DNA from: an uncultured Thermoplasmatales archaeon
Lineage (GTDB): Archaea > Thermoplasmatota > E2 > UBA202 > DSCA01
Direction: 5' to 3'
Assembly: GCA_964514975.1 (NCBI GenBank)
Contig: CAZESS010000005.1
Coordinates: 1-64,000 of the forward strand
DNA length: 64,000 nt
The translations under genes were made by a program, and so were the position numbers. This document shows, piece by piece, positions 1-16,170 of this stretch; the first letter of the stretch is position 1, and each line of letters starts with the position of its first letter. The notes below the pieces were generated by a model. The model did no database searches. It was not told the DNA's origin and worked only from the letters and a program-made list of their open reading frames with translations.

Positions 1-214
1 GGTCATAGGAAAGGTTGACCTCACCGGTCATAATATCGGAAACATTGTGAATCATGATGGTCACCGTCACCGTCATACCTGGAGCGGCGCTGCAGTCCTC
101 GATGGAGACAATGACCGGGGCACGGTTTCCCATGCCGGTGAGCGCGGTGGCGAGCAGTATGGCCGGTATGGCCAGCGCGATGGCGGTTATCAGGATTGTG
201 TGTTTTGTGTTCAT
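1..214 (-). CDS. Secreted cohesin-domain protein, 5' part only (runs off left edge; absent from ORF track)
   Basis: My translation from ATG at 214 (ATGA overlap with the upstream stop): MNTKHTILITAIALAIPAILLATALTGMGNRAPVIVSIEDCSAAPGMTVTVTIMIHNVSDIMTGEVNLSYD. This is a signal peptide plus a segment collinear with the cohesin N-terminus of 11546..13513 (VAVSIPDCGALPGETTSVAIVIHNVSNIMTGEINLTYD). Confidence 0.8.
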   Translation of the reverse strand, partial: MNTKHTILITAIALAIPAILLATALTGMGNRAPVIVSIEDCSAAPGMTVTVTIMIHNVSDIMTGEVNLSYD

Positions 215-1737
215 TGTAACACCTCGTAGCCTGGCTGGCCGATGAGGTGTTTGGCGAGATAGGAGGCATCCATGAAGTTTATGGCGCCGTTGCCGCTGAC
301 GTCGGCGACGCCGTCGATGATAAAGGTGTAGCCTGGCTGGCCGATAAGGTGTTTGGCGAGATAGGAGGCATCCATGAAGTTAACGGCGCCGTTGCCGCTG
401 ACGTCGCCGTTTTTCCAGATGGTGAGCGTGAGGTTTGTGGTGTTCCAGTTGCCGGCGGTGTCGGTTGCGTTGACCTCGAGGTGGTGGGGCTGGTATGCAT
501 CTGCTGTGGTGTTGTAGATCGCGGTGCCCGCGGTGGCGTTGGTTTCGATGTACCAGACCCCGGTGCTGTCGACGGGGGCCATGTTTTTGGTGCCTCTGCC
601 CAGGGTGGTGAGGTTGATGGTGACGCTGCTGATGTTGCTGCTGTCGTTGACGGATACGAACAGGGTGGCGGTTTCGTTGAATGTGGGGTTGCCGTCGGTA
701 TCTGTGGGGATGACGGGGCGGTTGGGCGTGAGCGGCGTGAGCTCTGGGCGGTCGTTGTCGGTGATGGTGACATTGTTGGTGGTCGTGTTCCAGTTGTTGC
801 TGGTGTCGTTTGCGGTGATATGGTAGTGCAGCATGTCGCTGGCGGCGGGGATGGTGACCGTTGCCGTGTAAATGGTGCCATGTGTGTTGGACAGCGAGAT
901 GTTGGTGTGGCCGCCGCTGTCGTACCAGTATTCCACCCATGCGGTGTCAACATCGATGTTGTCGGTGATGGTGGCGTTGAAGGTGTAGAGGTCCCCGGTG
1001 TATGCCGATCCCGGGCTGTTGTCGGTCACCACCGGAGGATATGGGTCTGTTATCGGTATGGTGCCGGATGTGGTGTTCCAGTTGTTGTAGGTGTCGTTTG
1101 CGGCGATGACATAGTGCAATGGCTCGAGGGTGTCAGCGATGGTGATCGAGGCTTGCCAGTGGTCGCCGGCCACGTTGTTCATGCTTATGTTTGTGTGGCT
1201 GCCGCCGGTGTACCAGTATTCAACGAAAACCTCGTCGATGTCGACGTTGTCGGTGACGGTTGCGTTGAACGTGAAGGATTGCCCGGTTGTCGCCGATGCG
1301 GGCGTGTTGTCGGTGATGTCGGGAGGCGTGGTTTCTTTGAGGAGAAACGTGGTGGTGTTGCGGGCCTGCCGATGGGCGACATGGATGGTGCAGGTGCCGT
1401 AGGCGGCCCAGTCGGGGATGGTGAACTGGATGCTGTAGGCACCGGTCGCGTCGGTGGTTGCTTCGCCGGCGAACAGGGTGCCACCATAGGTCCCGGTGAC
1501 CTGGACGCCGACGGTTTCGCTGTCGAGCGGTGCTCCATTGTGGGTGAGATTGCCCTGTATGGGGACGATGTCGCCGTGGAGGTACGTGGGCTGGACGGGG
1601 TCGAGCGTGAGATGTTCATCTGCGCCGGACACAGATGGATTGCACAGGGTAAGGAGGGCGAGAAGGATAATGACGGTCGCCAGCACAAGGGATGGAGGCC
1701 GGGAGGCAAAACCGCGATCAAAAAAGGTCGAGGTCAT
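211..1737 (-). CDS. Secreted Ig-repeat protein with N-terminal MG2-like domain and C-terminal dockerin (dockerin A)
   Basis: Signal peptide; Ig-like repeats (TDNTP/TDNSP...FNATVTDN); C-terminal duplicated Ca-loop-helix GDVSGNGAVNFMDASYLAKHL...ADVSGNGAINFMDASYLAKHL matching the type I dockerin pattern. Confidence 0.85.
   Translation of the reverse strand: MTSTFFDRGFASRPPSLVLATVIILLALLTLCNPSVSGADEHLTLDPVQPTYLHGDIVPIQGNLTHNGAPLDSETVGVQVTGTYGGTLFAGEATTDATGAYSIQFTIPDWAAYGTCTIHVAHRQARNTTTFLLKETTPPDITDNTPASATTGQSFTFNATVTDNVDIDEVFVEYWYTGGSHTNISMNNVAGDHWQASITIADTLEPLHYVIAANDTYNNWNTTSGTIPITDPYPPVVTDNSPGSAYTGDLYTFNATITDNIDVDTAWVEYWYDSGGHTNISLSNTHGTIYTATVTIPAASDMLHYHITANDTSNNWNTTTNNVTITDNDRPELTPLTPNRPVIPTDTDGNPTFNETATLFVSVNDSSNISSVTINLTTLGRGTKNMAPVDSTGVWYIETNATAGTAIYNTTADAYQPHHLEVNATDTAGNWNTTNLTLTIWKNGDVSGNGAVNFMDASYLAKHLIGQPGYTFIIDGVADVSGNGAINFMDASYLAKHLIGQPGYEVLQ
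226..406. repeat. Direct repeat encoding the two halves of dockerin A (226-304 and 328-406, 102 bp period)
   Basis: 79 bp units with 3 mismatches by eye. Confidence 0.9.
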
Positions 1738-3116
1738 GGCCTCTCACCCCGGTTTATGTGGCTGGCGGCGAGGAGAGCGAGGAGGAACGCCCCGATGACG
1801 ATGAATGAAGGCAGGGGCATGCTGTCCGCCGTGGAGGTAACGGTGAGCGTCGCGGTGGCGTCGCCGATGGCAAGGGGATAGGTGCCTGTGGCGTTTTTGG
1901 TCACGTTGAAGGTGATGGTTGCGGTTTCGTTGGCCGGTATCGTGATGTTTCGGCTGGTCTCGATGGTACCGTTGACGAAAAGCTCGAGGATGTGTGACAT
2001 GGTCTGGTTGGAGGGGTTGGACACGTGTACGGTGACGGTGGCCGTTTCACCTGTCTCTATCTCCGCTGGCTGGACGTCGATGCTGTCTATGGTGAACGGC
2101 ATGGGTGACATGGTTGTGGATGCGGTCGCGGGCTGTGACCGTGCCCCCTCGTTGCCGGAGGTGTCAACGGCGCTGACCCGGTAGGTATATGTGTGGTTGA
2201 CGGCGAGCTCGGTGTCGTGGACGCCTGTCGCTGTGGCGTTGACAGCGGCGATGAACGTCCGGTCGCGGTAGATGTTGTAGTGGTCGACGGCCTGGTTGTC
2301 GCTGGCAGGGCTCCATTGCAGATGGATGGTGCCGCCATAGGTGCTGTACATCGAGGGTGCAGGGGTGGCGGTGAGGTTGGTGACCCGGGTGGGCGGCGTG
2401 GTGTCGCCTGTCGCCGCATGGGTGGTGAACGTGTGCGAGCTGCTCGTGTTGTGGTTGCCGCTGCTGTCGTGGACATGGATGCGGTAATGGATGGTTGTGT
2501 CGGGCTGGAGGCCGATGAGCGACGCCTGATGTCTGATATCGTGTTCGCCTGGCTCCGTCGTGTGGGGCATGGCGCTGTCGCCATATGCTATGTGGCCGGT
2601 GGATGGCTCGCTGGTCATCCAGGTGACGACGGCCGTGGTCGGCGTTATATGGGTGACGTCTATGGCGTGTATCTCTGGCGGCATGGTGTCCGCGGGTGGC
2701 TGCGAGGTGAGGTTGCAGGATGTGGTGGCCCTGGCCTCCTGGTAGGCGACGTAGACGGTGTAGGTGCCATATGGCGCGGTGGCCGATGGATTGATGGCGA
2801 CGGCATAGTAGCCGTCGGTGGCGGTCGAGGTCATCTTTGCGGCGTGGACACCGCCATGGGGGTCGTTGACCTGTATGCCGATGGCTCTGCCGTGCAGCGG
2901 CTGACCGTTTTGGGCGAGCGTGCCGCTAACCGTGATGGTTTGGTTGCGGCCATAGATTGCCCTGTCGGTCGTTGCGGTGAGCTCATATGACGCTGCTGGT
3001 GAAGCCTGCACAAATGGTATGGCAGCGGGTGCCAGCAGGAACAGGAACATGATGAGCATGGATGCTAAAAAAAGGCGAAATGGAGCTGTGACAGTGTATC
3101 CTTGTATCAGTTTCAT
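1734..3116 (-). CDS. Membrane-anchored surface protein: MG2-like head, two FN3-like domains, CARDB-like domain, C-terminal TM (PGF-like LPSF tail)
   Basis: GGAGG RBS before ATG 3116; signal peptide; TDRAIYGRNQTITVSG; FN3 motifs (LQPDTTIHYRI, YTYRVSAVDTSGNE); IETGETATVTVHVSN; tail LPSFIVIGAFLLALLAASHINRGERP. Confidence 0.8.
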   Translation of the reverse strand: MKLIQGYTVTAPFRLFLASMLIMFLFLLAPAAIPFVQASPAASYELTATTDRAIYGRNQTITVSGTLAQNGQPLHGRAIGIQVNDPHGGVHAAKMTSTATDGYYAVAINPSATAPYGTYTVYVAYQEARATTSCNLTSQPPADTMPPEIHAIDVTHITPTTAVVTWMTSEPSTGHIAYGDSAMPHTTEPGEHDIRHQASLIGLQPDTTIHYRIHVHDSSGNHNTSSSHTFTTHAATGDTTPPTRVTNLTATPAPSMYSTYGGTIHLQWSPASDNQAVDHYNIYRDRTFIAAVNATATGVHDTELAVNHTYTYRVSAVDTSGNEGARSQPATASTTMSPMPFTIDSIDVQPAEIETGETATVTVHVSNPSNQTMSHILELFVNGTIETSRNITIPANETATITFNVTKNATGTYPLAIGDATATLTVTSTADSMPLPSFIVIGAFLLALLAASHINRGERP

Positions 3117-3305
3117 GGTGATGGTCCTCCGGAGAGGATGAAAGGGGGCGGATGGGGGAAGAGGCATATGATGGGATGAGGGGGTGAGGGGGGTGAGGCG
3201 GATGAGGCAGGGGGAAAGGCGAGATGAAACTAAATATATAGGGGAGAAGGGAAGAGGGGGGTTGGGGGTTGGGTGGCGTGTGTCTGGTTGTCCGATGACG
3301 TCGGT

Positions 3306-6300
3306 TTAGACGATCTGCATCGTGAGCTCGTTCCACTCGGAGTAGGGCTCCCAGACGCCGGGGTCGCTGGGCAGGCAGCTCCAGATCATCGTCCATCCCT
3401 TGTACCAGTCGCCAGACGTGTAGCTTCCTGATATCTCCGTATCCACGAGGCTTGTACCGAGGAACGACAGAGAAGGCATGGTGCTCTTGGCGATCCATGC
3501 AGGCTTGTTGGGGATATCGCCTTCGGTGTCGCCGGGTCCCAGGAGCTCCTGGATGACCACGCCGTCGCTGAGGCCGCCGAGCTTTCTACACTTGTAGTCC
3601 GCTTGCCAGCCCGTACACGATTCAGAGTAGTCCTCCCCGGAGACGCCGACGAATTCTATCTTGTAGTCCCAGACATGTGCCTGCGGGTTGCTCGTGCCGA
3701 CGAACGGTGACGGGTTGTCGTTTGTGTCGACGGTTCGCACGGCGACATTGATGTCGTTTCCTGCCTGGCCGTCCATGTCCTCGCACTGGTAGGTGGTCGT
3801 ACCGGTGGTTATGTCTGCCTTGTGGGTGGCTGTTGTCCATTCGCTGAACGTTCCGGTGTGCCAGTAGACGTCGTATGACATGCCGGTTTTTTCTGTCCAG
3901 TCAATTTTGAAGCCATGCCAGGCACCGTCGGTGTTTGTTATATCCGTGGTGATACCATATGTCCAGGTGTTGCCGGCGCTCGGTGTCTCCTGGTTGCCGG
4001 CGCTGTCGGTGGCCCGTGACTCGATGGTTATCTCTGCGTTGGCATCACAGGTCTTCCAGTTGCTCGTGGTGGTATCGATTGTTGTGTAGTCCCAGTTTCC
4101 GGTGCCGCTGTCGTAGCTGGCATCGAGCCATGTATCGGTGGTTGTTGTCCAGTCGGAGCCATCCCAGTAGTTGCCGCTGCCGTCGCTGATGCGTATATGG
4201 ACGTTGCTTATCGGGGAGGTGGCGTCGCTTGCGGTACCCTCTATTGTTGTTATCTTGTTCCATTTGTCGCCGTCCGCCGGGCTGGTGACGGTTGATGATG
4301 GATTGGTGTTATCGATGGTGAAGTCACCATCAGAGGTGTCAGCACCGGTGTTCCCGGCTTCGTCGACCGCTTCCACTTTCACCTGGTATGTTGCACCATC
4401 TGACAGGCCGGTGGTATCCCAGCTATATGAACCATCATTGGCTTCACCGGAGGCTATCTCCGTCCACGTGCTTCCACTGTCATCACTGTAGTACAGGGTG
4501 ATGGGATTCGATGCCATGTTGGTATCCGACGCAGTCCATGTGATATCATGCGTGTCAGACCAGTACTCGCCGCCATTCGGCGACGTCACCGTCACAGATG
4601 GATCGGTGTCATCAAAGGTGAACGTGCTCGTGGTGGTCGTGGTCTGCACCAGTCCGGCTTTGTCGGTGGCCCTGGAGGTGACGGTGTAGGTATGCCCGGA
4701 TTCCCAGGTGACACCAGAGGAGTCGTAGCTCCAGCTTGACGGGTTGGAATCCGTGGTCAGCCATGTCTCGCTGCCCCAGACACTGCCGGTCCAGTAGTCA
4801 TTGTCGGTGTCATCGTGGATGGTTATCTCCACGGTTTGTACTTCGCCGTAGCCGTCGCTGCATCCGCCGCTGATGGTATCCACCACGTTCTGATAGGATC
4901 CATCCGCCGGACTGGTAACCGTCGACTCGGGGTTTGTCTGGTCGTATTTGAACGTCTGCGTCGCCGTCAGCGAGGTGCCGCTTTGTTTCACGGTGACAGT
5001 GCATTCTCCCTCGGCGCCGGCACCGAGCGTAAACTCGTCATAGGTGTTATGGCCGAACGTGCCGTCGGTGTCAGTATCCTGCTCGTAGGGAGCCGTCCAT
5101 ATCGGGTCTCCGTTGGTGTCCGTCGCATCCCATATGTACTGGTAGGTGTCCTCGGGAAGGAACTGGCCGCTGATGGAAACCGTGTCGTCTTCCTTGTAAT
5201 ATTCCTTCGACAGCGGGTCAAGCGAGAGGCTGTCGGCCTCGGCGCCATACAGCGGGCCGCCCGAGAAGTAGCTCATGCCCGGAGTGGTGCCCGTGGTGGT
5301 GCCGTATACGTAGCCCACGTAATCCGTCCTGCCGCTGTCCGATGTGTAGCCGGTGGTGCCGAACTCGGTCCACAGGCCGGTGGAGTCATCGAGATAGTAG
5401 AGCTTTTTGTGTGTCGGCTCGCTGTCAACCCACCGCTTAATCGTCACTTCGGACAACGAAGCGGCGTCGGGAATGTAGACGTCGAACGAATAGGCGCCTG
5501 TTGACAGTCCGCCGCCGCCGTTGGGGTCGGCGGTGTAGTTGAGAACGGTGACATCTACGCTGTCACCGGTTATATCAACGGTGACGTCTGCCTCGCTGGT
5601 CGCGTCGAGGGTTCCACCATCGGCGACCGTCGCTGTCTTGTATGCGTCGATGGGCGCCCTGAGCCATGGATCGAAGGTGATGTCGCCCCAGATGAAGTCG
5701 CCCTCACCAGTGGGATTGTCGGTGGCGTTGTACGGCCCAGATGAAGCACCCCACCAGTTGTGGGTCACGTCGAGCGCAGTGTTATCAATAGCGTATGCGC
5801 CATACTTTGAACAGTTTATGAAGTTGTTGTAATGGGCTTCTGTTCCAGTGGGAATGGTTGGGGCGTAGCTGTGGTCTTTAGCCGTTATACCGTATTCACA
5901 GTTTGATATGTCGTTGCCCTGGAAAAGTGTATCCCGAGCGTCTCCCTGCACGCTCACACCTTGTCCGCCATCGGTAATCATGTTGTTGAGTACCTGCGTT
6001 CCGACAGCCGGACCTCCATACTGAGATTCGTATCCCATTGCCACGATGCCGGCCTCGTAGTCATGGACATTGTTATTTTTTATCACGACGTTGTCTCCTG
6101 CGACCACCAGGATGCCGGATGCCGCCCAGTCCTCGGAGGCCAGATAGGATCCTTCGACGTCGTTGCCGATGACCGTTGAATCGTCGCCGGCGACCTGTAC
6201 GGAATTGCCATGTGCGCCGGACTCCTCTGGAGCATATACGATGTTGTTGAGGACATGGATGGTGTTTCCATCTGCGCTGCCATATCCATTGCAGATGCCG

Positions 6301-7934
6301 ACGTTATCCCAGTTTTCGACGGTGAAGCCCTCTATGGTGACGGTACCGAGATTCGTGCCATCTATATCGATGGCACGGTCGGCGCCGCTCGCGTTGAGGA
6401 TGGTGTGCTCTGCGCCTGCATCGGACTGCAATGTAAGGGCCTTGTCGACGGTAAGCGCCTCATGATATGTTCCTGCACCGACCGTGATGGTGTCGTCGCT
6501 TGATGCCGCATTGATAGCCGCCTGGATGGTGTCATAGTAGGTGGACGTGTCCTCGTTGAGGACCTTGCCAGCCTCCATGCCGAGCCAGGGATCGTAGTCG
6601 ACGTAGGTGCTCACCGCGTCGCCGCTCCCGGTGCCCTGACCGCTGGGGCCAGAAGTGTCGCCCCACCAGTTGTAGGTGGCGTCAACAGTTGACGGTGTCC
6701 CACTGGAAGCCCAAGATTCCACACCATATACACTGTTACCTTCAATGGTATTGTAATGGACCTCTGTCCCGGTTACGCCATTAAGATCGCCGTAGTCACA
6801 TGCCGCAACGCCGTAATTGTTGTTAGTAAGCGTGTTGCCCTCTATCAATGTGTTATAGACTGGGGAGCCAAGATGAATACCTTCTTTGTTGGTATTCGCA
6901 GTGTTGTCCCTGATAATGGTATCTTCGGCGGGGTCCTTCGGCGTAGTGTACCACCATCCGGTCACGCCGATACCATAATCGTTGTCGGATACGGTATTAC
7001 CTTCGACGACTATGCCGTCACAGTCCTTCACCACGATGGCCGTTGAATCCCAGTCAGGATTATCCTTGAGTCCGCATTCAGATACATGGTTGTCAGCAAT
7101 GGTCCCGGCCGTACCAGAAGCGACCTGTATCCCGTTTTCAGCCCACCAATCGTCCGTCATCTCGACACCGTTGCCATATACAGTGTTGTTATTGATATCA
7201 GCGACTGGATTCGGAGCCGATCCACTGGTTGGAGCATCGGGATTATCATCTCCTTTCACCTCGATGCCGCCGCGGCTGAACTCTTCGACGGTGTTGTATT
7301 CGATGGTGATGTCGGAGTCGCCATATACCTCGATGCCAAACGTCTCAGGGCCATCTCCCGCTCCGTCCGGGTCAAACATGTCGTGGATCTCGTTGTTGGA
7401 AATCGTCCCATCGATGTTCCGACCGAATACGCCCACGTAACGGGGGTCAGCGGTGGCTTTGTTGCCGCCGTCTATTTCGAATCCGTCAATGGTCACCGAA
7501 ATGGTGCCTGAGCCGCTGACATCGTTGCCGCTCATGGTGCCACCATAGGCAAAAACAATCGGGTCCCATGTATCATCGTTCTCAGCTATGGTGTACGTGT
7601 TCCGTGTATCAGGGGCCACAATGGTTGCACCCGTTGCACCCTGCAACGTCAGATCCTTATCGATGATAATCTGCTCTGTATACATTCCCGCTGCAACGGT
7701 AATGGTGTCTCCAGGATGTGCCGCGTTGATGGCTGCCTGGATGCTCGCGTAGTCTGCGCCTCCGTCGTCGTCAACGGTATACGTTGTCCCGCTGGCCTCC
7801 GCCGTCGGCGCTGTGAACGCGATGCCGGCGAAGGCTGTGCCGATCATCAGCAGCGCTATCAGCGGTGCCAGTATCCTCTTTCTTTCTATCGTATGTGTAA
7901 AATCTCTCTCGTTTTGTTTTTTATGGCTACTCAT
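3306..7934 (-). CDS. Giant (1542 aa) secreted protein with two right-handed parallel beta-helix modules and multiple Ig-like domains
   Basis: Signal peptide; two IQAAINAA..GDTITV..G.Y.E starts, each ending in (V/L)D.T.NWWG...GP...DPWL; Ig repeats (PESTVTSPADG, SPNGGEYWS); no C-terminal TM. Confidence 0.85.
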   Translation of the reverse strand: MSSHKKQNERDFTHTIERKRILAPLIALLMIGTAFAGIAFTAPTAEASGTTYTVDDDGGADYASIQAAINAAHPGDTITVAAGMYTEQIIIDKDLTLQGATGATIVAPDTRNTYTIAENDDTWDPIVFAYGGTMSGNDVSGSGTISVTIDGFEIDGGNKATADPRYVGVFGRNIDGTISNNEIHDMFDPDGAGDGPETFGIEVYGDSDITIEYNTVEEFSRGGIEVKGDDNPDAPTSGSAPNPVADINNNTVYGNGVEMTDDWWAENGIQVASGTAGTIADNHVSECGLKDNPDWDSTAIVVKDCDGIVVEGNTVSDNDYGIGVTGWWYTTPKDPAEDTIIRDNTANTNKEGIHLGSPVYNTLIEGNTLTNNNYGVAACDYGDLNGVTGTEVHYNTIEGNSVYGVESWASSGTPSTVDATYNWWGDTSGPSGQGTGSGDAVSTYVDYDPWLGMEAGKVLNEDTSTYYDTIQAAINAASSDDTITVGAGTYHEALTVDKALTLQSDAGAEHTILNASGADRAIDIDGTNLGTVTIEGFTVENWDNVGICNGYGSADGNTIHVLNNIVYAPEESGAHGNSVQVAGDDSTVIGNDVEGSYLASEDWAASGILVVAGDNVVIKNNNVHDYEAGIVAMGYESQYGGPAVGTQVLNNMITDGGQGVSVQGDARDTLFQGNDISNCEYGITAKDHSYAPTIPTGTEAHYNNFINCSKYGAYAIDNTALDVTHNWWGASSGPYNATDNPTGEGDFIWGDITFDPWLRAPIDAYKTATVADGGTLDATSEADVTVDITGDSVDVTVLNYTADPNGGGGLSTGAYSFDVYIPDAASLSEVTIKRWVDSEPTHKKLYYLDDSTGLWTEFGTTGYTSDSGRTDYVGYVYGTTTGTTPGMSYFSGGPLYGAEADSLSLDPLSKEYYKEDDTVSISGQFLPEDTYQYIWDATDTNGDPIWTAPYEQDTDTDGTFGHNTYDEFTLGAGAEGECTVTVKQSGTSLTATQTFKYDQTNPESTVTSPADGSYQNVVDTISGGCSDGYGEVQTVEITIHDDTDNDYWTGSVWGSETWLTTDSNPSSWSYDSSGVTWESGHTYTVTSRATDKAGLVQTTTTTSTFTFDDTDPSVTVTSPNGGEYWSDTHDITWTASDTNMASNPITLYYSDDSGSTWTEIASGEANDGSYSWDTTGLSDGATYQVKVEAVDEAGNTGADTSDGDFTIDNTNPSSTVTSPADGDKWNKITTIEGTASDATSPISNVHIRISDGSGNYWDGSDWTTTTDTWLDASYDSGTGNWDYTTIDTTTSNWKTCDANAEITIESRATDSAGNQETPSAGNTWTYGITTDITNTDGAWHGFKIDWTEKTGMSYDVYWHTGTFSEWTTATHKADITTGTTTYQCEDMDGQAGNDINVAVRTVDTNDNPSPFVGTSNPQAHVWDYKIEFVGVSGEDYSESCTGWQADYKCRKLGGLSDGVVIQELLGPGDTEGDIPNKPAWIAKSTMPSLSFLGTSLVDTEISGSYTSGDWYKGWTMIWSCLPSDPGVWEPYSEWNELTMQIV

Positions 7935-8150
7935 GTTTTCGCCTCCACCACCACAAAACGAAGGGTATTTAAAAAATGTGTGTAAAAACCTGCGTAGGTA
8001 ATTACCTTCTATTATATACGTTGTGTATATCCTCGTTGAGCTATCGGCCGGACAGCGGCGTCATCGGCGTCACAGAGCCCGGTGTCGCGACGCGGCGGCG
8101 AAGCAGGTCTCACCCACGCCCATCCAGCCCGGTTTCCCAGGCGCATCCCA

Positions 8151-8181
8151 ACAAAAAAAAAACAAAATCAAACAAAAAAAA
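8151..8181 (-). terminator. Oligo-T tract on minus strand, candidate archaeal terminator
   Basis: Plus strand ACAAAAAAAAAACAAAATCAAACAAAAAAAA; resembles the T-tract after 42903. Confidence 0.4.
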
Positions 8182-9354
8182 CGATGACGATGACGATGAA
8201 GAGCATGCCGCGGCGTCACCGCCGTCCTCATCACCCATATATAACATTGGCTCCCGCTCGTCTCCCGCGGCGTGGTCGCTCCATCCATCCAGCCCGTTTT
8301 AGCGCGCATCCATTTCTTGGGGCATGCCATGCCGTCCTTTTCTGTCACCGGCATCTTTGACTGCAAACCGTCGACATCGGCCAGCAAAGCAGTGCATGGC
8401 CGCCAACGCACCGCAATAGACAATGCAAGGGGGAAACCCGGCGGGAACGGGAGAGAACCACACGAGAGCACGCGGGAGCACCTGGAGGCACAGCGTGAAC
8501 CAGAATATGGCCGCGGCGGACCCGGGTGAATGGAGTGGGGTCAAAAAACCGGCCGATGCGGCTCAAAGGCCCCAGGTGCCCCCGATTTCTCCCCATTTCC
8601 CCCCGCATGTTTCTCCAGAATAGACCCCGGCGGGGTGGGGTGGGTAAACGCCGGAAAAACACCCGCCGGCTTATAAAGCCCGGGTTTCCGTGTTTCCGGG
8701 ATTTACCAGGTAATGCAATCCCGACTATTCGGGTGCATCCTTTATAAACAGCGATGGGGTGACCGCAAGGGTAAAGCACGCTTTCATTCGGATTATGCGC
8801 CGGTTTCATTACATCGCTCCATCCCGCAATTTTTGATGCACACGGTGCCACAAAAAACGGCAACAAATGTAATATTGATACCATAAGCACCGGCAGCGCC
8901 GTGAAAAACGCCAAAATGATAACAAAACCAATGCATCATCCATCCCGGCAGCCCCATGGCCGCCATCCGGCGATGTTGCAGGGTCAAATTGTATCAACGA
9001 ACATGACATATCGATAAACCACGGGGGCAGACGGCAGACAAATATGAAACATTTCATCGCGCGAGCGCGTATCGAGCGCGTATCTGCAGTATCTATCTGT
9101 GCCTCCCGCTGCCCCATTTCCCGGCCGTTCATTCTCGTTCTCGCTCCATCACGCCATATCGACCAAAAAAAACCCGTTCCAGCAAGTGAGCCTCTATAGA
9201 ACGAATTGTTCTCCCTCTTGCTTCCCCCAATGCCATAGCCGGAGAGTATACATCAAGCTTTGCCACAATATCCTGCAGCGGATGAATGAGCAGATTTCCA
9301 GGTGAGGGCGAGCAAAAAGATGGCAAAACAGGGATACCGACGTGGCAGGCGACT

Positions 9355-10401
9355 TCACAGCAGGTACAGCATGATGTTTCCCTGCTCGTATCGGCCGTAC
9401 TGCAGGATGATATGGCAGAATATATGCAGGAAACGCCGGCCGCGCTCCGTCAGAGAGTAGGCGTTGTCATCCTGCACGATGAGACCACGGTCCGCCAGGA
9501 GGTTGAGATGGTAGGCGAGCCGCGACGAAAACGGCATGTCCAGCTTTTCCAGCAGGTCCGAATAGGTGAGCGAGCGATTGGTGTCGAGCACGTAGATGAT
9601 CTTCCGCCGGGCCTCATGGGAGAGCACCGTCATCACCTCGTCGATGTACGACCCGATAGAGGAATCGTGTAGGCTGGAAAGCACCCACCTCTCCGACCGT
9701 CTATCGCCAAGGAGCATCAGCACCCCGTCGGACTGGTCCATGTACCCGTAGAGCCATGCGACGTAGTCACGTAGCAGGTCCTCCCCCCAGGCTTTTTCCA
9801 GCGCGGCGAAGCCGCCGTGGGCCACGCAGCCCGTCTCCCGCCCGGAGCAAAACCGCCGTATCGTGTCTTTCAGGCGGTTGAGAGAGACATCTTTGTCGGG
9901 GGCAACGTGAACGGTTTTTTCGGACGCTGTCTCGAACGTGTCCTTGAACCGCTCCGCGTTGTCTGAGATGAGCAGGATGGGTTTATCTGCGGCCCGCCGC
10001 CTGATGTGCTCCTTGACCGCCGCCTGCATATCGACGTGCAGGGGAACGGAGGATTGGGTGGCCTCGCTGATGACATCTACGAGGTCCTCGGGCTCGAACG
10101 GCTTCGTCACGAAATCGGCGGCGCCCAGCTTGAATGCTGTGACCGCCGCCTCGACGCTCCCGTAGCCGGTGACGACGATGAACCGGGTGTCCGGGAGCGA
10201 GCGTTGCGCTTTCCGGAGCATGTCCAGCCCGTGCATGTCCGGGAGCACCAGGTCGAGGACAACCGCGTCATATCGGGCATCGGCGAGCTGTTGGAGGGCT
10301 CTTGCGCCGCAGTCAGCCGTTTCAAGGCTAAAATGAGGGTTGAGATACTGTTTCAGCATGTCCCGGTAGGCCGGGTCGTCGTCGACGAGCAGCACCTTCA
10401 C
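9355..10401 (-). CDS. Response regulator: REC + DUF835-like middle domain + C-terminal winged helix-turn-helix
   Basis: KVLLVDDD, phospho-Asp in VVLDLVLPDMHG, TG, FVTKPF; C-terminal LSHEARRKIIYVL...RLAYHLNLLADRGLIVQDDNAYSLTERG (ArsR-like wHTH). Confidence 0.85.
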   Translation of the reverse strand: MKVLLVDDDPAYRDMLKQYLNPHFSLETADCGARALQQLADARYDAVVLDLVLPDMHGLDMLRKAQRSLPDTRFIVVTGYGSVEAAVTAFKLGAADFVTKPFEPEDLVDVISEATQSSVPLHVDMQAAVKEHIRRRAADKPILLISDNAERFKDTFETASEKTVHVAPDKDVSLNRLKDTIRRFCSGRETGCVAHGGFAALEKAWGEDLLRDYVAWLYGYMDQSDGVLMLLGDRRSERWVLSSLHDSSIGSYIDEVMTVLSHEARRKIIYVLDTNRSLTYSDLLEKLDMPFSSRLAYHLNLLADRGLIVQDDNAYSLTERGRRFLHIFCHIILQYGRYEQGNIMLYLL

Positions 10402-10543
10402 GGTATCTCTCTCATATCGTGTTCATATCGTGTAAGCCACGGCCAACCCGCCCCGTGAACCGGAGGGCGCCTCCGCCTGTATCGTAAATTATATAATCAT
10501 ATTTAAACATTGTTACCCCTGCTATTCCGTCAATAGATAAAAA

Positions 10544-10571
10544 AATTTTGTATAACGCCCTATACAAAATT
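10544..10571. promoter_or_regulatory. Perfect 11 bp inverted repeat in divergent promoter (candidate operator)
   Basis: AATTTTGTATA-acgccc-TATACAAAATT inside the AT-rich 10480-10591 spacer between the regulator and the dockerin B gene. Confidence 0.55.
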
Positions 10572-10591
10572 ATTTTAATTTTATATACATT

Positions 10592-11527
10592 ATGGCTACC
10601 GTCACCATGACTCGCGCCGATGCGCTAGCGGTATTGCTCATCCTCATAGCACTGACAGCCACACATATAGCACCGGCAGTCGCCGGCGAGACGGAAACAC
10701 TGACGGTGGACACCGACGCCGGCAGCTACCCCCGGGATGCCACGGTCACCATAACCGGCATCCTTGCCAATAGCAGCGGCGGCATCTCCGGGGAAACCAT
10801 CGGGATATCCGTCGAGGACAGCCTGGGCATCATCCTGTTCACCGACAACCCGACAACCAACCAGAGCGGCTGCTACGCCACGGATTTCACCATCCCGTCA
10901 TCGGCGTCAACAGGCACCGCAACCATCTACGCCGCCCATGGAACGGCGCACAGCAACGCCACATTCACCATTACCTCAGAGGACACCACACCGCCGGAGA
11001 TACAAAACGTGACCGTGTCCCGCAGCGTGCTCCCCGAGGACACCGACGGCTCCCCGGCATGGGGGGAAACATCCAACGTGTCCGTCACCGCCACCGACAC
11101 CGGCGGCATAGCCGCCGTGACCGTCAATCTGGCCCCGCTCGGATGGAGCATCGCGCCCATGCATCCGGGAGCAGCCGGCTGCTGGCATCGCATCGTGAAC
11201 GCATCCGTTGGAACTGCCACGTGGAACGGCAGCACCGGGCAGTATGACCCGCTGAACCTTGTGATAAATGTCACGGATACAGCCGGCAACTGGAACACCA
11301 CCAGCGTTGCCCTCACCATCTGGAAAAACGGCGATATAAGCGGCAACGGCGACGTCAACCTCTACGACACATCATACCTCGCGAAACACCTGCTCGGCCA
11401 GCCCGCATATGCATCCCTGGCGGATAGCGTCGCCGATGTCAGCGGCAACGGCGACGTCAACCTCTACGACACATCATACCTCGCGAAACACCTGCTCGGC
11501 ACGCAGGGCTACGGGGTGTTACATTGA
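10592..11527 (+). CDS. Secreted protein with MG2-like head, one Ig-like domain and C-terminal dockerin (dockerin B)
   Basis: Signal peptide; TDAGSYPRDATVTITG; C-terminal GDISGNGDVNLYDTSYLAKHL...ADVSGNGDVNLYDTSYLAKHL; paralog of 211..1737. Confidence 0.85.
   Translation: MATVTMTRADALAVLLILIALTATHIAPAVAGETETLTVDTDAGSYPRDATVTITGILANSSGGISGETIGISVEDSLGIILFTDNPTTNQSGCYATDFTIPSSASTGTATIYAAHGTAHSNATFTITSEDTTPPEIQNVTVSRSVLPEDTDGSPAWGETSNVSVTATDTGGIAAVTVNLAPLGWSIAPMHPGAAGCWHRIVNASVGTATWNGSTGQYDPLNLVINVTDTAGNWNTTSVALTIWKNGDISGNGDVNLYDTSYLAKHLLGQPAYASLADSVADVSGNGDVNLYDTSYLAKHLLGTQGYGVLH
11339..11500. repeat. Perfect 60 bp direct repeat encoding both halves of dockerin B (11339-11398 and 11441-11500, 102 bp period)
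   Basis: AGCGGCAACGGCGACGTCAACCTCTACGACACATCATACCTCGCGAAACACCTGCTCGGC occurs twice. Confidence 0.95.
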
Positions 11528-11545
11528 AACCAGGAGGCATATAAA

Positions 11546-13513
11546 ATGAACAACATAAACCGTTTAGCTGCCATCGCGGCAGCGGCCATGCTCCTCGCGC
11601 TCATCGCTCCATCATCGTCCACGGCAGCCGACACACCGGTAGCGGTGTCCATACCCGACTGCGGCGCCCTGCCGGGCGAGACGACATCCGTAGCCATCGT
11701 CATCCACAACGTCTCAAACATCATGACCGGCGAGATAAACCTGACATATGATGCATCGGTCGTCCACGTGACCTCGGTCCAGGACAGCGATTTCGACATG
11801 TTGACCGTCAACATGCAAAACGCGAGCGGCTACACACGAATCGGCGGATGGCAGTTCTCCAGCCCGCCCATGAACGGAACGATAACGCTGGCCACCGTCA
11901 CCCTGAAAGCGACCGGGGACGAGGGCGACCGGTCACCGCTCGCCTTCGCCAAAATCGAGCTCATCAACGAAAGCGACGTCATCCTGCCGGACGAGCCCGT
12001 CAATGGAACCTTTACCATCCCCGATGGCACCGCCCCCCGGATAACCGATGGCTCTCCCGCCACGGCCACCGCCGGCGAAACCTACACGTTCGCCGCCACC
12101 GTAACTGACAACGATGCCGTTGCAGATGTCACCGTTGAATACTGGAACATGACGGGGCATCACGTCAACCGCTCCATGGACAAAAACGGCAACAGCTACC
12201 AGTACACCGTCGACGTCCCGCCCGCAACGGAGCAACTGCATTACATCATCGCCGCCAGCGACGCCAGCGGCAACTGGAACAGCACATCCGGCGACGTCAC
12301 CGTCACCGACGACATGCCGCCATCCATCTCCGATATATCCGCCAATCCTGTTTCGCAGCAGCCCGGCGGCACGGTGAACATCACGTGCACCGCCAGCGAC
12401 AACGTACAGGTGCAGGATGTCACGGTCAACATCACCCATCCGGACAGCAGCACCGAAATCGTCGCCATGTCACGGGTGCCAGATACACCTACCTACTACC
12501 ACGAGGCAGCATACACCACCACGGGCGAGCACCGGTTCCACATATGGGCATCCGACGGCAGCAACAGCGCCACCTCGACCGTGCATACATTTGAAATCAT
12601 CCCACAGCACACCCTGCACACCACGGTTATGCCGGCCGGAGCGGGCACCATAGATCTGCAGCCGGACGGGGGCACCTACCCGGAGGACACCACGGTCACC
12701 GTAACCGCCAGCCCGTCACAGGGCTACACGTTCCACCAGTGGAGCGGCGACGCCAGCGGCGGCAGCACCACGATGCAGGTAACGATGACCCGGGACATCA
12801 GCCTGACAGCCCATTTCACCGAAGCGCCGTCCCCGCCACCGGAAAACCAGCCGCCATCCGTGTCCCTTGATACCCCCGCCGATGGCGCCACCGTCACGGG
12901 CAATGTTACAATTGAGGGTACCGCCAGCGACAGCGATGGCTCCGTCACATCAGTCGACATCAGTATCGATGGCGGTGGATGGCAGACCGCGACGGGAACC
13001 AGTGATTGGAGCTACACCTGGAACACCTCCAGCGTCGCCAACGGAGACCACGTCATCAGGGCGCGGAGCTACGACGGCGAAAACTATTCAGATGTCGCCG
13101 CCGTACCTGTCGAGGTGTCCAACAACCATCCACCGGCGGTCACCATAACAACGCCACCTCCCGGAACGACCGTAAACGAGGCGGTGCTGGTCAGAGGAAA
13201 CGCCAGCGACCCCGATGGAAACACGTCCATCACAAAGGTGGAGGTAAAAATCGGCAACCAGTCCTGGACGACCGCCGACGGCATCGAAAACTGGGCATGC
13301 CCGCTCGAGCCCGAGACGTTGAGCGAGGGCGCGTGCACCATCCAGGCCAGGGCCTACGACGGCACCAGCTATTCCGATATCACATCCATCACCGTGACCA
13401 TAGACACCGCCGGGGAAAGCAGCAGCGGCGTCGGGATGCTCCTTCCCATTCTGGCTATCGTAGCTGCCATCGCAGCGGCCATCATCATTCTCCTGTTACG
13501 GAGAGGCACATGA
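11546..13513 (+). CDS. Membrane-anchored cohesin-domain protein with Ig-like stalk
   Basis: GGAGG RBS; signal peptide; cohesin-like N-domain (PGETTSVAIVIHNV...INLTYDASVVHVTSV...GTITLATVTLKATG...SPL...VNGTFTI); Ig, InlB-B-like (GYTFHQWSGD) and Big_7-like domains; C-terminal TM plus RR. Confidence 0.8.
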   Translation: MNNINRLAAIAAAAMLLALIAPSSSTAADTPVAVSIPDCGALPGETTSVAIVIHNVSNIMTGEINLTYDASVVHVTSVQDSDFDMLTVNMQNASGYTRIGGWQFSSPPMNGTITLATVTLKATGDEGDRSPLAFAKIELINESDVILPDEPVNGTFTIPDGTAPRITDGSPATATAGETYTFAATVTDNDAVADVTVEYWNMTGHHVNRSMDKNGNSYQYTVDVPPATEQLHYIIAASDASGNWNSTSGDVTVTDDMPPSISDISANPVSQQPGGTVNITCTASDNVQVQDVTVNITHPDSSTEIVAMSRVPDTPTYYHEAAYTTTGEHRFHIWASDGSNSATSTVHTFEIIPQHTLHTTVMPAGAGTIDLQPDGGTYPEDTTVTVTASPSQGYTFHQWSGDASGGSTTMQVTMTRDISLTAHFTEAPSPPPENQPPSVSLDTPADGATVTGNVTIEGTASDSDGSVTSVDISIDGGGWQTATGTSDWSYTWNTSSVANGDHVIRARSYDGENYSDVAAVPVEVSNNHPPAVTITTPPPGTTVNEAVLVRGNASDPDGNTSITKVEVKIGNQSWTTADGIENWACPLEPETLSEGACTIQARAYDGTSYSDITSITVTIDTAGESSSGVGMLLPILAIVAAIAAAIIILLLRRGT

Positions 13514-13555
13514 TGACCAGCGAACACGGTGAATGATGCAAAAACGTCAGTATCC

Positions 13556-14020
13556 ATGATGATCGTTCCCGCCTGCAGAAATGGCACAACGACGCAGCCC
13601 ACGCAGAGAGTGCTAGTCATAGATAACGAACAGGAGGTGCACCAGTTGATACGGGAATACCTTCCATCCCGGTTTACGGTGTGCTCCGCCTATGACGGAA
13701 CAGAGGGCTGCACGATGTACCGGGAGCTGTCCCATGCGGGAAAAACACCCGATGTGGTGGTCATGGACCTCAACCTCTCCGAAACTAGGTCACATGAAGG
13801 CATGATACGGCAGATGCAGGGCAAGGAAATGGACGGCGTGGCCGCCACCAAAACCATATTGAAATATGACCCGGAGGCCACCATCGTCGGGTTCAGTGCG
13901 TTCGCCGACATGGAGTGGGGTGAACGGCTTAAACAGGCAGGAGCACAAAGGGTGTTCGGTAGAAACATCGGCTTCGAGAGTTTCGCCGAACAAATCGAGG
14001 AAATAATATCCAGGCAATAA
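13556..14020 (+). CDS. Stand-alone atypical receiver (CheY-like) protein; start uncertain (GTG 13529 or ATG 13556)
   Basis: RVLVIDNE, PDVVVMDLNL...MDGVAATKTI, SAF; ~15 aa insert after the phospho-Asp; canonical KP replaced by FGR. Confidence 0.75.
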   Translation: MMIVPACRNGTTTQPTQRVLVIDNEQEVHQLIREYLPSRFTVCSAYDGTEGCTMYRELSHAGKTPDVVVMDLNLSETRSHEGMIRQMQGKEMDGVAATKTILKYDPEATIVGFSAFADMEWGERLKQAGAQRVFGRNIGFESFAEQIEEIISRQ

Positions 14021-14107
14021 CAAAATTGTATCATCCTGTATCGATATATTTTTATACCGCCGGCAGGGAGGGGCATAACGTTTTTAATGGCTGGATGTTG
14101 ATAGCCT

Positions 14108-15388
14108 ATGAAGCGGGCGCCGCGGAAACTGCTCGATGTCAACGAGGCCACGGTTGACACGAAAAACGCGTCGGCGCTCTGCCTGAAATGCCGGGGCGCT
14201 AAGCGATTGTGCGGCAAGGACCGCTGTCCGATCATGGTGAAACTGTATTCGCAGAAAAAAACCCGGCCGTTGATAGATGGGACGTCGCTGCATGGCGCGA
14301 CGCCGCCGTCTGTCTTCGTCGGCCGCTATGGATATCCGAAGGTCAGCGTGGGGCCGATGGTGCCGCCGGTCCATGGTGACACCTCGATGGTTGACACCCC
14401 GGAGCTGTGGCGGGGGAAGAGCATCGACGACATCGTCGACTTCCGGATGAAGCTCGTCCGGGGCAAATACCGCACCCCGGTGGATGATTTTTCTGGAAAA
14501 ATCGTTGACTACACGCGGGAGGTCGGCCTCGCCGCGCGGTCGGTTGACACCGAGCTGACGTTCACCAAAAGGCCTCGGGGCTCGATTGCGCTGTATGACA
14601 GCGTGCAGCCCCATGGCCCCTCGGGTTCGATTAAAAAGGTCTGGGTGGAGAATCCCTCGGTGGACAGGCAGGTCGAGAAGGCGTTTTATGACGGGGATTT
14701 AAAAGCGAAGGATGCGGTGCTTGAGCTGTACAACAGCGACGTGCTGGTCTCCCGTATCCAGAAGGCGTTTTCCGTCGGCGCGTTTGGGATAGAAAACAAC
14801 CGGAGGTTCGTGCCGACCCGGTGGAGCATCACCGCCGTTGACTCCACCATCGGCAACGAGCTCAAGGGGCGGGTGAAGCGCTATCCCTACATCAACGAAT
14901 GCCGCGTGTATGAGACATATAGCCTGGACAACCGCTGGCTGGTGGTGATGTACCCGGCGAGCTACGAGTATGAGCTCATCGAGGCCTGGTTTCCGAACAC
15001 GACGTGGAATCCCTCCGGGCGGCGCATCGTCATCTTCGGCGACCACGAGTTTTATGACGGCCGGACGTCCTATGCATCCATTGGCGGCTGCTACTATGCG
15101 GCGCGGCTGGCCACCGCCGAGGCATTGGACAGGGAGCGACGGCAGGCGGGCATCGTGGTGCTCCGTGAGACCCATCCCGGCTACATCATGCCCGTCGGCG
15201 TGTGGAACGTCCGGGAGAATGTCCGGGCGGCGCTGCAGAGCGACCCGCATCGCTTCGACTCGCTGCGACAGGCGCTGGGCTACGTTGAAGGCATGATGGA
15301 CATCCCGCTGCACCGGTGGATTGAAACGAGTGAGCTGTTGCAGAGCCGGCTGTTTCAGCGGCGGCTCGACGACTACCTGGAACCATGA
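14108..15388 (+). CDS. nreA: Nre-family archaeal DNA repair protein
   Basis: N-terminal CxxCxGxxxLCGxxxCP, PPSVFVGRYGYPKV, VPTRWSITAVD, GGCYYAARLA, PVGVWNVRENVR; C-terminal PIP-like QRRLDDY. Confidence 0.9.
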   Translation: MKRAPRKLLDVNEATVDTKNASALCLKCRGAKRLCGKDRCPIMVKLYSQKKTRPLIDGTSLHGATPPSVFVGRYGYPKVSVGPMVPPVHGDTSMVDTPELWRGKSIDDIVDFRMKLVRGKYRTPVDDFSGKIVDYTREVGLAARSVDTELTFTKRPRGSIALYDSVQPHGPSGSIKKVWVENPSVDRQVEKAFYDGDLKAKDAVLELYNSDVLVSRIQKAFSVGAFGIENNRRFVPTRWSITAVDSTIGNELKGRVKRYPYINECRVYETYSLDNRWLVVMYPASYEYELIEAWFPNTTWNPSGRRIVIFGDHEFYDGRTSYASIGGCYYAARLATAEALDRERRQAGIVVLRETHPGYIMPVGVWNVRENVRAALQSDPHRFDSLRQALGYVEGMMDIPLHRWIETSELLQSRLFQRRLDDYLEP

Positions 15389-16170
15389 AGCAACTGTGGT
15401 GTAAGACGGCGCTTTCCCCGTCGGGGCTGCCCGGCCTCGACTATGCGTTGAACCCCTATGCGGGGTGTGCCCATGGCTGCCGCTATTGCTATGTCCCGGC
15501 GGTGCTCCATCAGCCGCGCAGCGAGCTGACCGATGTCGCGGCAAAAATCAACATCCCGCAGGTGCTCCGCCGCGAGCTGAAACACGGGCGGCATGGCGTC
15601 GTGGGCGTTTCGACGGTCACCGACCCCTATCAGCCCGCCGAGCGGGAATGCCGGCTCATGCGGAAATGTCTCCCGCTGCTGCACAAACGGAACATGGCCG
15701 TGGACATCCAGACAAAGTCGGGGCTGGTGAGGAGGGACATCGACCTGCTGCGGCGTTTCAGCCATGTCGCGGTCGGCATCACCATTACCACGCTCGATGA
15801 AAACGTGCGGCGGCTCCTTGAGCCCTGTGCTCCGCCGGCTGACCGACGGCTGCATGCGCTGCGGGAGCTCGCCGATGACGGCATTTCAACCTATGTTTTT
15901 TTCGGCCCGGTGCTCCCCGGCCTTGACGTCGATGATGTCGCGGGATATGTACGGCGCTTCGCGGATGCCGGTGTCGATGAGCTCATGGTTGACACGTTAC
16001 ACCTCAAGCCGGGTGTCTGGGACAGCGTCGCCACGGCGCTCCCCGACGAGCTCCGGGAGCTGTACCGCCGGCGGCTGCGACGTGACAGCGGCTATTATCC
16101 CGCCGTTATCGAGGAGATCGAAAAAGCCTGCCGGCGGCTCGGCCTCCACTGCAGCCGTGCGTTCCGCTAG
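15385..16170 (+). CDS. Radical SAM protein, SplB/DNA repair photolyase-like family
   Basis: LNPYAGCAHGCRYCY, STVTDPYQPAE, QTKS.LV.RDIDLL, LEP.AP...RRL. Confidence 0.85.
   Translation: MKQLWCKTALSPSGLPGLDYALNPYAGCAHGCRYCYVPAVLHQPRSELTDVAAKINIPQVLRRELKHGRHGVVGVSTVTDPYQPAERECRLMRKCLPLLHKRNMAVDIQTKSGLVRRDIDLLRRFSHVAVGITITTLDENVRRLLEPCAPPADRRLHALRELADDGISTYVFFGPVLPGLDVDDVAGYVRRFADAGVDELMVDTLHLKPGVWDSVATALPDELRELYRRRLRRDSGYYPAVIEEIEKACRRLGLHCSRAFR

Follow-up and report, generated by a model that had tools for sequence, protein, structure and literature searches.

Two gene pairs near the start of contig C5 (GenBank CAZESS010000005.1) of an uncultured Thermoplasmatales archaeon raise the question of what a dockerin protein and a cohesin protein encoded side by side do in such an organism. 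The window analyzed here is the first 64 kilobases (kb) of C5, starting at base 1 of the contig; the source genome measures 1.96 megabases and is 98.9% complete. Pair A (docA and cohA) lies on the minus strand, pair B (docB and cohB) on the plus strand. An earlier note had interpreted the two as plug-and-socket devices for surface display, possibly orthogonal to one another, located next to dedicated two-component regulators and the best candidate in the window for an undescribed system. We find that the genes probably encode non-cellulosomal, type-I-like cohesin-dockerin couplings that build glycoprotein complexes at the cell surface. The display part of the proposal is backed by real modules, secreted non-catalytic dockerin proteins, a membrane stalk in cohB and a conserved gene order, whereas the parts concerning orthogonality, dedicated regulators and novelty are not sustained. 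All four open reading frames (ORFs) are present as described. Together with one gene and one site that bear directly on them, they are:

2..214, minus strand: cohA, the N-terminal 71 amino acids (aa) of a cohesin protein that runs off the contig start (translation; Pfam Cohesin).
211..1737, minus strand: docA, a 508-aa secreted protein ending in a dockerin (Pfam; hydrophobic segment; N-X-S/T sequons).
1734..3167, minus strand: p477, a 477-aa one-piece surface protein with a transmembrane helix (Pfam; homology of its head).
10592..11527, plus strand: docB, a 311-aa secreted protein ending in a dockerin (Pfam; AlphaFold2 [AF2] model).
11533..11538, plus strand: AGGAGG, a Shine-Dalgarno-like site 7 nucleotides (nt) ahead of the cohB ATG.
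11546..13513, plus strand: cohB, a 655-aa anchored cohesin stalk (Pfam; AF2; Foldseek).

The genes of each pair are closely packed. The stop codon of docA and the start codon of cohA overlap as ATGA, in agreement with the translational coupling predicted for this pair, and the p477 stop in turn overlaps the docA start. A gap of 18 nt separates docB from cohB.

Profile searches and structural models identify the modules of docA, docB and cohB as real dockerins and cohesins of a type-I-like kind. Dockerin_1 (PF00404; cut-off 22.9 bits) scored 33.6 bits at aa 444-498 of docA and 31.5 bits at aa 247-302 of docB, so that both dockerins, like the cohB cohesin below, exceed the curated Pfam cut-offs, while truncated cohA sits at the cut-off. 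In docA the dockerin (nt 214-408) is preceded by an N-terminal hydrophobic signal, a head resembling MG2, two DUF4625-like immunoglobulin (Ig) repeats and an Ig-like module (nt ~418-765). The shorter docB consists of a signal, the MG2-like head, the Ig-like module (nt 10994-11326) and the dockerin (nt 11330-11524). The Ig-like module ahead of the dockerin is conserved in the subfamily to which docA and docB belong. Two repeats are visible in each dockerin, in keeping with the two units of ~22 residues, each a calcium loop and a helix, that define type I, and the profile of the Ig-dockerin region matches solved type I dockerins (3ul4_B, 3.5e-7). An AF2 model of the C-terminal 177 residues of docB, covering Ig-like module and dockerin, reached a predicted local distance difference test score (pLDDT) of 88.7 and a predicted template-modelling score of 0.77, with helices at 123-133, 144-147 and 157-167. 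Residues 110-177 of this model superimpose on type I dockerins in VIA-align (Z 11.2-11.6; root-mean-square deviation 1.1-1.2 Å over 63-64 residues). Residues 1-112 form a generic Ig/PKD-like sandwich, matching Ig, PKD and carbohydrate-binding module (CBM) folds at Z 9-10; no solved X-dockerin dyad is among the VIA-align matches listed, and Foldseek returned no PDB match to the Ig-dockerin model at E≤0.001.

The cohesin side gave equally clear results. In cohB, Cohesin (PF00963; cut-off 24.1 bits) scored 28.7 bits at aa 32-128, and 33.3 bits in a scan of the whole genome. The signal and the cohesin module (nt 11630-12040) are followed by a DUF4625-like domain (28.4 bits), an Ig domain, Flg_new_2 (56.1 bits), two copies of Big_7 (102.7 bits) and a C-terminal transmembrane helix with a basic tail (aa 625-655, nt ~13418-13510). 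The description of cohB as a gene directly following docB and encoding an Ig stalk with a membrane anchor is thereby borne out by Pfam domains and predicted topology. The protein is not of the PGF-CTERM type: it ends in the transmembrane helix and RRGT without PGF, and Pfam did not report PF18204. The AF2 model of the cohesin module (pLDDT 94.3) has nine strands, as does the jelly-roll beta-sandwich typical of cohesins. In Foldseek it matched 115 PDB entries at E≤0.001, the top-listed of which are all cohesins or cohesin-like modules, with template-modelling scores (TM-scores) of 0.79-0.86 to type I cohesins, 0.80 to the Archaeoglobus fulgidus cohesin 2xdh and 0.70-0.74 to type II cohesins. 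The N-terminal domain of cohB is therefore predicted to adopt the cohesin fold on which the earlier note had made its reading depend. A profile of the cohesin subfamily likewise matched 3l8q (4e-10) and 2xdh (1.3e-6) in the PDB.

What is left of cohA is a signal or hydrophobic segment and the first strands of a cohesin module, scoring 22.9 bits in Pfam and 24.1 bits, exactly the cut-off, in the whole-genome scan. Over 42 aa the fragment shares 86% identity with the cohesin of a paralogous pair on contig C14, and over 39 aa it shares 69% with cohB. Completing cohA by leftward extension, as had been suggested, proved impracticable: the window begins at contig base 1, and none of the other contig edges carries a continuation. 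Between C5 and C14 the terminal DNA is only ~70% identical, too little to establish a join.

All of docA, docB, cohA, cohB and p477 begin with a hydrophobic segment. A C-terminal transmembrane helix is predicted in cohB and p477 only, docA and docB having none. In docA, docB, cohB and p477 there are 2.5-3.9 sequons per 100 aa, where the median for the genome is 0.29; these densities fall within the 95th-99th genome percentile (docA, 3.94 per 100 aa, at 98.8). Such richness is as expected for archaeal surface glycoproteins. Neither Pfam nor NCBIfam recognizes a catalytic domain in docA or docB, confirming the earlier claim on this point, and NCBIfam has no informative family for docA, docB, cohB or p477.

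How a secreted protein without an anchor might be retained at the cell surface is suggested by p477. Its head is MG2-like, as in docA and docB (32% identity to docB over 139 aa, E 1e-11; 31% to docA, E 2e-9), and is followed by PAP_N, fn3 and CARDB Ig-like domains and a transmembrane helix at aa 448-472. By homology and position, p477 is a one-piece counterpart, in the same operon, of the two-piece dockerin/cohesin proteins. Since here the head is fused directly to its own stalk and membrane helix, the cohesin-dockerin coupling may be regarded as standing in for a peptide bond. We accordingly propose the following scheme. The docA and docB proteins would be exported and lose their signal peptides, retaining no anchor of their own but ending in an Ig-like module and a two-repeat calcium dockerin. 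The next gene, co-transcribed and in pair A translationally coupled, would supply a stalk with the cohesin outermost and the other end fixed to the cell, by a transmembrane helix in cohB and by a two-part tail domain in the C14 paralogue. Plugging of the dockerin into the cohesin, presumably in a calcium-dependent manner, would leave the MG2-like head carried atop a stalk of Ig domains. The heads may serve adhesion or particle binding and would have no enzymatic role.

The rest of the genome shows the same arrangement repeatedly. Scanning yielded 7 dockerin and 8 cohesin matches, in 7 dockerin proteins and 7 cohesin proteins. A cohesin-bearing ORF directly follows five of the seven dockerin genes, one pair being weak: pairs A and B in the window and further pairs on contigs C14, C4 and C16. 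The probability of such adjacency (5/7) arising by chance is P ~1e-11, a rough estimate that assumes ~1900 genes and 7 cohesin genes; the association is far beyond chance. On C14, a dockerin protein cut by the contig end precedes a cohesin protein of 1820 aa. On C4, an 833-aa dockerin protein is followed, with an ATGA overlap, by an 891-aa protein carrying two cohesins. On C16, where both module scores are weak, the proteins are 3612 and 1330 aa long. All these pair proteins are assembled from Ig, PKD, fn3 or beta-helix domains, with no enzyme domain in any of them. Across all dockerin and cohesin proteins of the genome, Pfam detected no catalytic domain of a carbohydrate-active enzyme, and carbohydrate-related entries gave only partial matches below cut-off.

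Pair A has its closest paralogue in the C14 pair, docA being 59% identical to the C14 dockerin protein (docC14) over 208 aa. Together with docB, these two dockerin proteins make up a single subfamily, and the three cohesins encoded beside them make up another. The C14 cohesin protein (cohC14), which has seven PKD domains, lacks a transmembrane helix and ends instead in the two-part tail, ~165 aa in length (G000:C14:53644-54243, locus L054). Tails of this type occur at 17 or more other places in the genome with 43-67% identity over at least 150 aa, one of them farther along C5, beyond the window (C5:77380-77928). Cohesin stalks in this organism would thus use at least two kinds of attachment, a transmembrane helix and the two-part tail. 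The stalk and head proteins also share material with one another: an Ig repeat is homologous between docA and cohB (43% identity over 136 aa).

Widening the survey to the class showed cohesins in 87 of 197 genomes. Nearly all members of the host's own family have them (11/12), as do those of the other two families of its order (24/25 and 1/1); outside the order, 48 of 108 genomes are positive in family f4 and none of 32 in family f6. Among the 30 cohesin loci with the highest scores in the class, the cohesin gene is directly preceded by a dockerin-ending ORF at 12, the spacing being -13 to +28 nt, and at 5 more the cohesin protein ends in a dockerin of its own; several of these loci are mutually orthologous, so the counts are not independent. 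The gene order that the earlier note had proposed to look for in Thermoplasmatota is thus a recurrent one. Two relatives carry two dockerin-then-cohesin pairs in tandem (L089 in G071:C47 and L090 in G072:C1), the first dockerin gene being followed by a cohesin gene for 184 aa and the second by one for 180 aa in the basic layout. Their cohesin proteins, 180-187 aa long, consist of a cohesin, a PGF-like C-terminal motif and a transmembrane helix and nothing else; the motif was recognized by eye, Pfam PGF-CTERM not being reported. The dockerin proteins of both loci themselves include a cohesin, alongside PD40 or FG-GAP propellers, and a protein of 192-193 aa with an N-terminal dockerin comes after the tandem pairs.

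The docA/docB subfamily, in which the Ig-like module is joined to a dockerin showing D-x-S/N-G-N/D-G...Y-L-A-K-H, is rare in a word-indexed search, which returned 12 proteins at E≤1e-5. A genome scan with a profile built from a five-row alignment found 27 loci, mostly in anaerobic methanotrophs of the ANME-1 group (Methanophagales), in Methanosarcinales/ANME-2 and in Methanomicrobiaceae. The downstream ORF was examined at 25 of them (L040 was omitted because of a frameshift, and L042 because nothing but a short overlapping ORF comes next). Eleven of these ORFs match Pfam Cohesin at E≤1e-3, eight of them above the cut-off; seven more appear cohesin-like at the N-terminus by eye only, and seven are unrelated. 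At L039 the cohesin-side protein carries a PGF-CTERM domain (34.1 bits). Among the 21 host proteins of the dockerin that were scanned (six fragmentary ones being omitted), nine contain cohesins themselves and a single one contains an enzyme, an S8 peptidase.

A variant of the arrangement was seen at L026-L033 (ANME-1, Methanosarcinales and related metagenome-assembled genomes), where the cohesin protein following the Ig-dockerin protein has the structure cohesin-PKD-dockerin. This second dockerin is of another type (D-L-N-N-D-C ... G-A-N-W ... A-W), which is also found at the end of large upstream proteins. The sequence arrangement points to a two-level assembly. The cohesin subfamily is large in metagenomes: its profile matched 9216 representative clusters at E≤1e-3, a number that falls to 257 at E≤1e-30, and single chains contain as many as 14 cohesin stretches (P0014 and others); large scaffoldin-like proteins therefore exist within this mostly archaeal subfamily.

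Several observations weigh against the coupling of neighbours proposed above. Two of the seven dockerin genes in the genome have no adjacent cohesin gene, and other candidate partners are encoded elsewhere, namely the two-cohesin protein of C4, a protein on C26 and a 781-aa protein on C16. Adjacency is missing at 18 of the 30 class loci and 7 of the 25 Halobacteriota loci, and is hence frequent, not obligatory. Furthermore, cohA can be read for 71 aa only, its anchor lying beyond the contig start. Finally, the calcium loops of docA, docB and docC14 read D1, S3, N5, N9 and D12 in each of the six repeats; an EF-hand-type loop could accommodate this set, but S3 and N5 make it less acidic than the usual D-N-D-N-D, in which N/D and D occupy these two positions.

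If the neighbours do couple, the question becomes how exclusive they are. The earlier note had pointed to positions 10 and 11 of the dockerin loop, which passages of PMC8063739 present as accepted specificity determinants. Its residue assignments were correct: these positions are FM in both repeats of docA and LY in both repeats of docB, and positions 17 and 18 are AK in each. Strict orthogonality, whereby each dockerin would bind the cohesin of its own gene neighbour only, as dictated by FM versus LY, nonetheless appears doubtful. In its favour, docA and docB differ at positions 7, 10, 11 and 13; orthologues from other metagenomes keep the residues of their lineage (FM/FM in P0004, LF/LY in P0003); and pairs have duplicated as units, both in the host genome and in G071 and G072. 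However, FM and LY are both hydrophobic pairs, and docC14 combines the LY of docB, in repeat 1, with DN in repeat 2, so that one of its faces is the same as in docB. The cohesins tell a similar story. With 76% identity between them, the cohB and cohC14 modules differ at 8 of 38 positions of the sheet made of strands 8-3-6-5, which we take to be the dockerin-binding one, at 14 of 44 of the other sheet and at 10 of 51 in the loops, the assignment to strands being approximate. The presumed binding sheet is thus no more diverged than the rest. The cohA fragment, for its part, is 86% identical to cohC14 (42 aa) despite the difference between docA and docC14. The claim that A and B are orthogonal is thus unsupported, LY being shared by docB and docC14 and the cohesin sheet showing no excess divergence.

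Within each dockerin the two repeats hardly differ, synonymous sites included. Among codons for identical residues, only 1 of 25 differs between the two repeats in docA, 2 of 23 in docB and 4 of 22 in the third gene compared; the paralogues themselves are ~73-75% identical in DNA. The pattern suggests that intragenic gene conversion homogenizes the repeats and so keeps the binding faces alike. The symmetry of the two repeats also points to a dual-binding mode, in line with a passage of PMC8063739 in which high conservation between dockerin repeats is read in this way. One could imagine that pairs A, B and C14 form a specificity code, with positions 7, 10, 11 and 13 steering each head to its own stalk and gene conversion matching the faces, but we consider it improbable. 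Were it true, a cell could bear several heads on separate stalks with no cross-talk, and archaea would possess a natural set of orthogonal, calcium-releasable connectors.

A still less probable alternative takes gene adjacency as a matter of co-expression only. The dockerins would then belong to a network, promiscuous or hierarchical, with cohesins from other loci as their partners (for example on C4, C26 or C16), and the neighbouring cohesins would receive other dockerin proteins. With 7 cohesin and 7 dockerin proteins in the genome, partners are at hand; the dockerin sequences of C4, C7 and C16 are very different, and the cohesins inside 9 of the 21 relatives' dockerin proteins imply multi-level chains. 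Against such a network stands the tight, often overlapping order of dockerin gene and cohesin gene, which is found in more than one class. That pairs duplicate as units is most easily explained by direct partnership, and the membership of docA, docB and docC14 in one subfamily, paralleled by that of their neighbour cohesins, tells in the same direction. Least credible of all, and very improbable in our estimate, is that the cohesin-like sandwich and the calcium-binding tail do not interact, being structural or glycan-binding parts of independent proteins: the function of non-cellulosomal modules is indeed called unknown in a passage of PMC5244752, yet both modules are true family members by sequence and fold, and their conserved pairing would be left unexplained.

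The direct coupling of neighbours, to which we return, has to be set against what was already on record. Non-cellulosomal archaeal cohesins and dockerins have been known since 1999. The window's modules resemble those of Archaeoglobus and ANME archaea in being archaeal, unconnected with cellulose and devoid of cargo from the carbohydrate-active enzymes (CAZymes). With the A. fulgidus cohesin 2xdh they share a type-I-like fold (TM-score 0.80; profile E 1.3e-6), and the genomes in which the docA/docB type of Ig-dockerin turns up belong mainly to ANME-1, Methanosarcinales/ANME-2 and Methanomicrobiaceae. The host differs from the ANME archaea in being a non-methanogenic member of the Thermoplasmatota: mcrA was not found in its genome, and its FtsZ shares 94% identity with a protein assigned to a Thermoplasmatota archaeon and 76% with one assigned to a Thermoplasmata archaeon. 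A section of PMC9012536 (Chadwick et al. 2022), citing Haimovitz 2008, mentions specific binding of the A. fulgidus modules; sections of the same article and of PMC5244752 (Timmers et al. 2017) describe ANME-1 genomes with dozens of cohesin and dockerin domains of unknown role. Archaeal non-cellulosomal modules are already in print, and the gene pairing is widespread; the description of the system as undescribed must be withdrawn. The relevant sections of the two articles give domain inventories without the dockerin-then-cohesin pairing (the S4 Data of Chadwick et al. standing outside the comparison). Among titles and abstracts, with subscription journals mostly outside the scope, we found neither this pairing in archaea nor any Thermoplasmata cohesins.

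The logic of the pairs, taken as an analogy, comes closest to cellulosome anchoring, in which a scaffoldin with an X-dockerin meets the product of a neighbouring anchoring cohesin gene. An example is CipA of Clostridium (Acetivibrio) thermocellum, whose X-dockerin II binds the cohesins of the cell-bound proteins OlpB, Orf2p and SdbA, the gene olpB adjoining cipA. Common to both cases are the Ig-like module ahead of the dockerin, a cell-anchored cohesin protein encoded next door and, on the scheme proposed here, the attachment to the surface. The differences are several. Both modules of the window are type-I-like (for the cohesin, TM-scores of 0.79-0.86 to type I versus 0.70-0.74 to type II); its Ig-like module matched generic Ig/PKD folds only; the anchor is a transmembrane helix or an archaeal tail in place of surface-layer homology repeats; and the proteins carry no enzymes or CBMs. 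The anchoring interpretation is more than an analogy because of the head shared with p477, the Ig repeat shared by docA and cohB, and the relatives reduced to a minimal socket plus anchor.

In structural terms, the best matches for both modules are the type I pairs of enzyme and scaffoldin (1ohz, 2vn5, 3ul4, 4dh2), and dual-binding pairs of this type likewise have two near-identical dockerin repeats with variable positions 10 and 11. The window's pairs depart from them in having one cohesin per stalk protein, a non-catalytic cargo, and the residues S3 and N5 in the calcium loops. A cellulosome can be ruled out: the genome's dockerin and cohesin proteins include no CAZyme catalytic domain and no large scaffoldin, the maximum being the two cohesins of the 891-aa C4 protein.

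The window is, then, a clean and useful example of a widespread archaeal rule; what it yields is chiefly a correct annotation and not a new system. Since 36 of the 38 other genomes examined from the host's order contain cohesins, cohesin-dockerin coupling would seem to be a routine means of surface building throughout an order of uncultured Thermoplasmata. The rule "dockerin gene, then anchored cohesin gene" recurs from the Thermoplasmata to the ANME archaea and, with 9216 cohesin clusters matching the profile, offers natural candidates for cognate pairs by the thousand, which could be used for learning the specificity code or for mining orthogonal protein connectors.

The two pairs are embedded in rows of further genes: p1542, p477, docA and cohA in that order on the minus strand, and docB, cohB and a stand-alone receiver (REC) gene on the plus strand. 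The remaining features are:

3306..7934, minus strand: p1542, a giant secreted right-handed beta-helix protein (NosD-like), first gene of the minus-strand cluster (Pfam).
9355..10401, minus strand: response regulator (REC plus DUF7347/helix-turn-helix [HTH]), divergent from docB (Pfam).
10402..10591, no strand: AT-rich divergent promoter region (G+C fraction ~0.39 versus 0.60 for the genome; TATA-like runs).
13529..14020, plus strand: REC-only protein, starting 15 nt after the cohB stop (Pfam).

The divergent response regulator is separated from docB by the AT-rich region of 190 base-pairs, and the REC-only gene is probably co-transcribed with docB and cohB. The genome has 21 REC matches, and pair B is the sole pair flanked by them (REC-HTH on the divergent side, REC-only downstream). 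No REC gene adjoins the C14, C4 or C16 pairs, the nearest lying 35 kb and 13 kb away and C16 having none; nor does a histidine kinase gene adjoin pair B. The notion of dedicated two-component regulators is therefore not supported, REC genes flanking pair B alone and a kinase being absent next door. The placing of a signalling-domain gene in line with two surface-protein genes is peculiar to pair B, the other pairs being without one.

A search of positions 1..16000 against Rfam gave no match. Among the sequencing runs listed for the stretch there is no RNA run; one DNA run (X1) contains it and may be its source. The 1.4 kb between the beta-helix gene and the response regulator (7935-9354) contain no convincing ORF, Rfam match or notable repeat; the G+C fraction drops to 0.475-0.52 in places. 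The 1542-aa product of p1542 matches Beta_helix (103.4 bits) and NosD (48.4 bits) in Pfam, and a comparable beta-helix gene also precedes the dockerin-cohesin pair on C4. The cluster at that locus (G000:C4:52909-63402, L053) encodes, in order, a beta-helix/PKD protein of 1320 aa, the 833-aa dockerin protein, the 891-aa two-cohesin protein with a transmembrane helix and a DUF7289 protein of 454 aa, and so runs parallel to the minus-strand cluster of the window.

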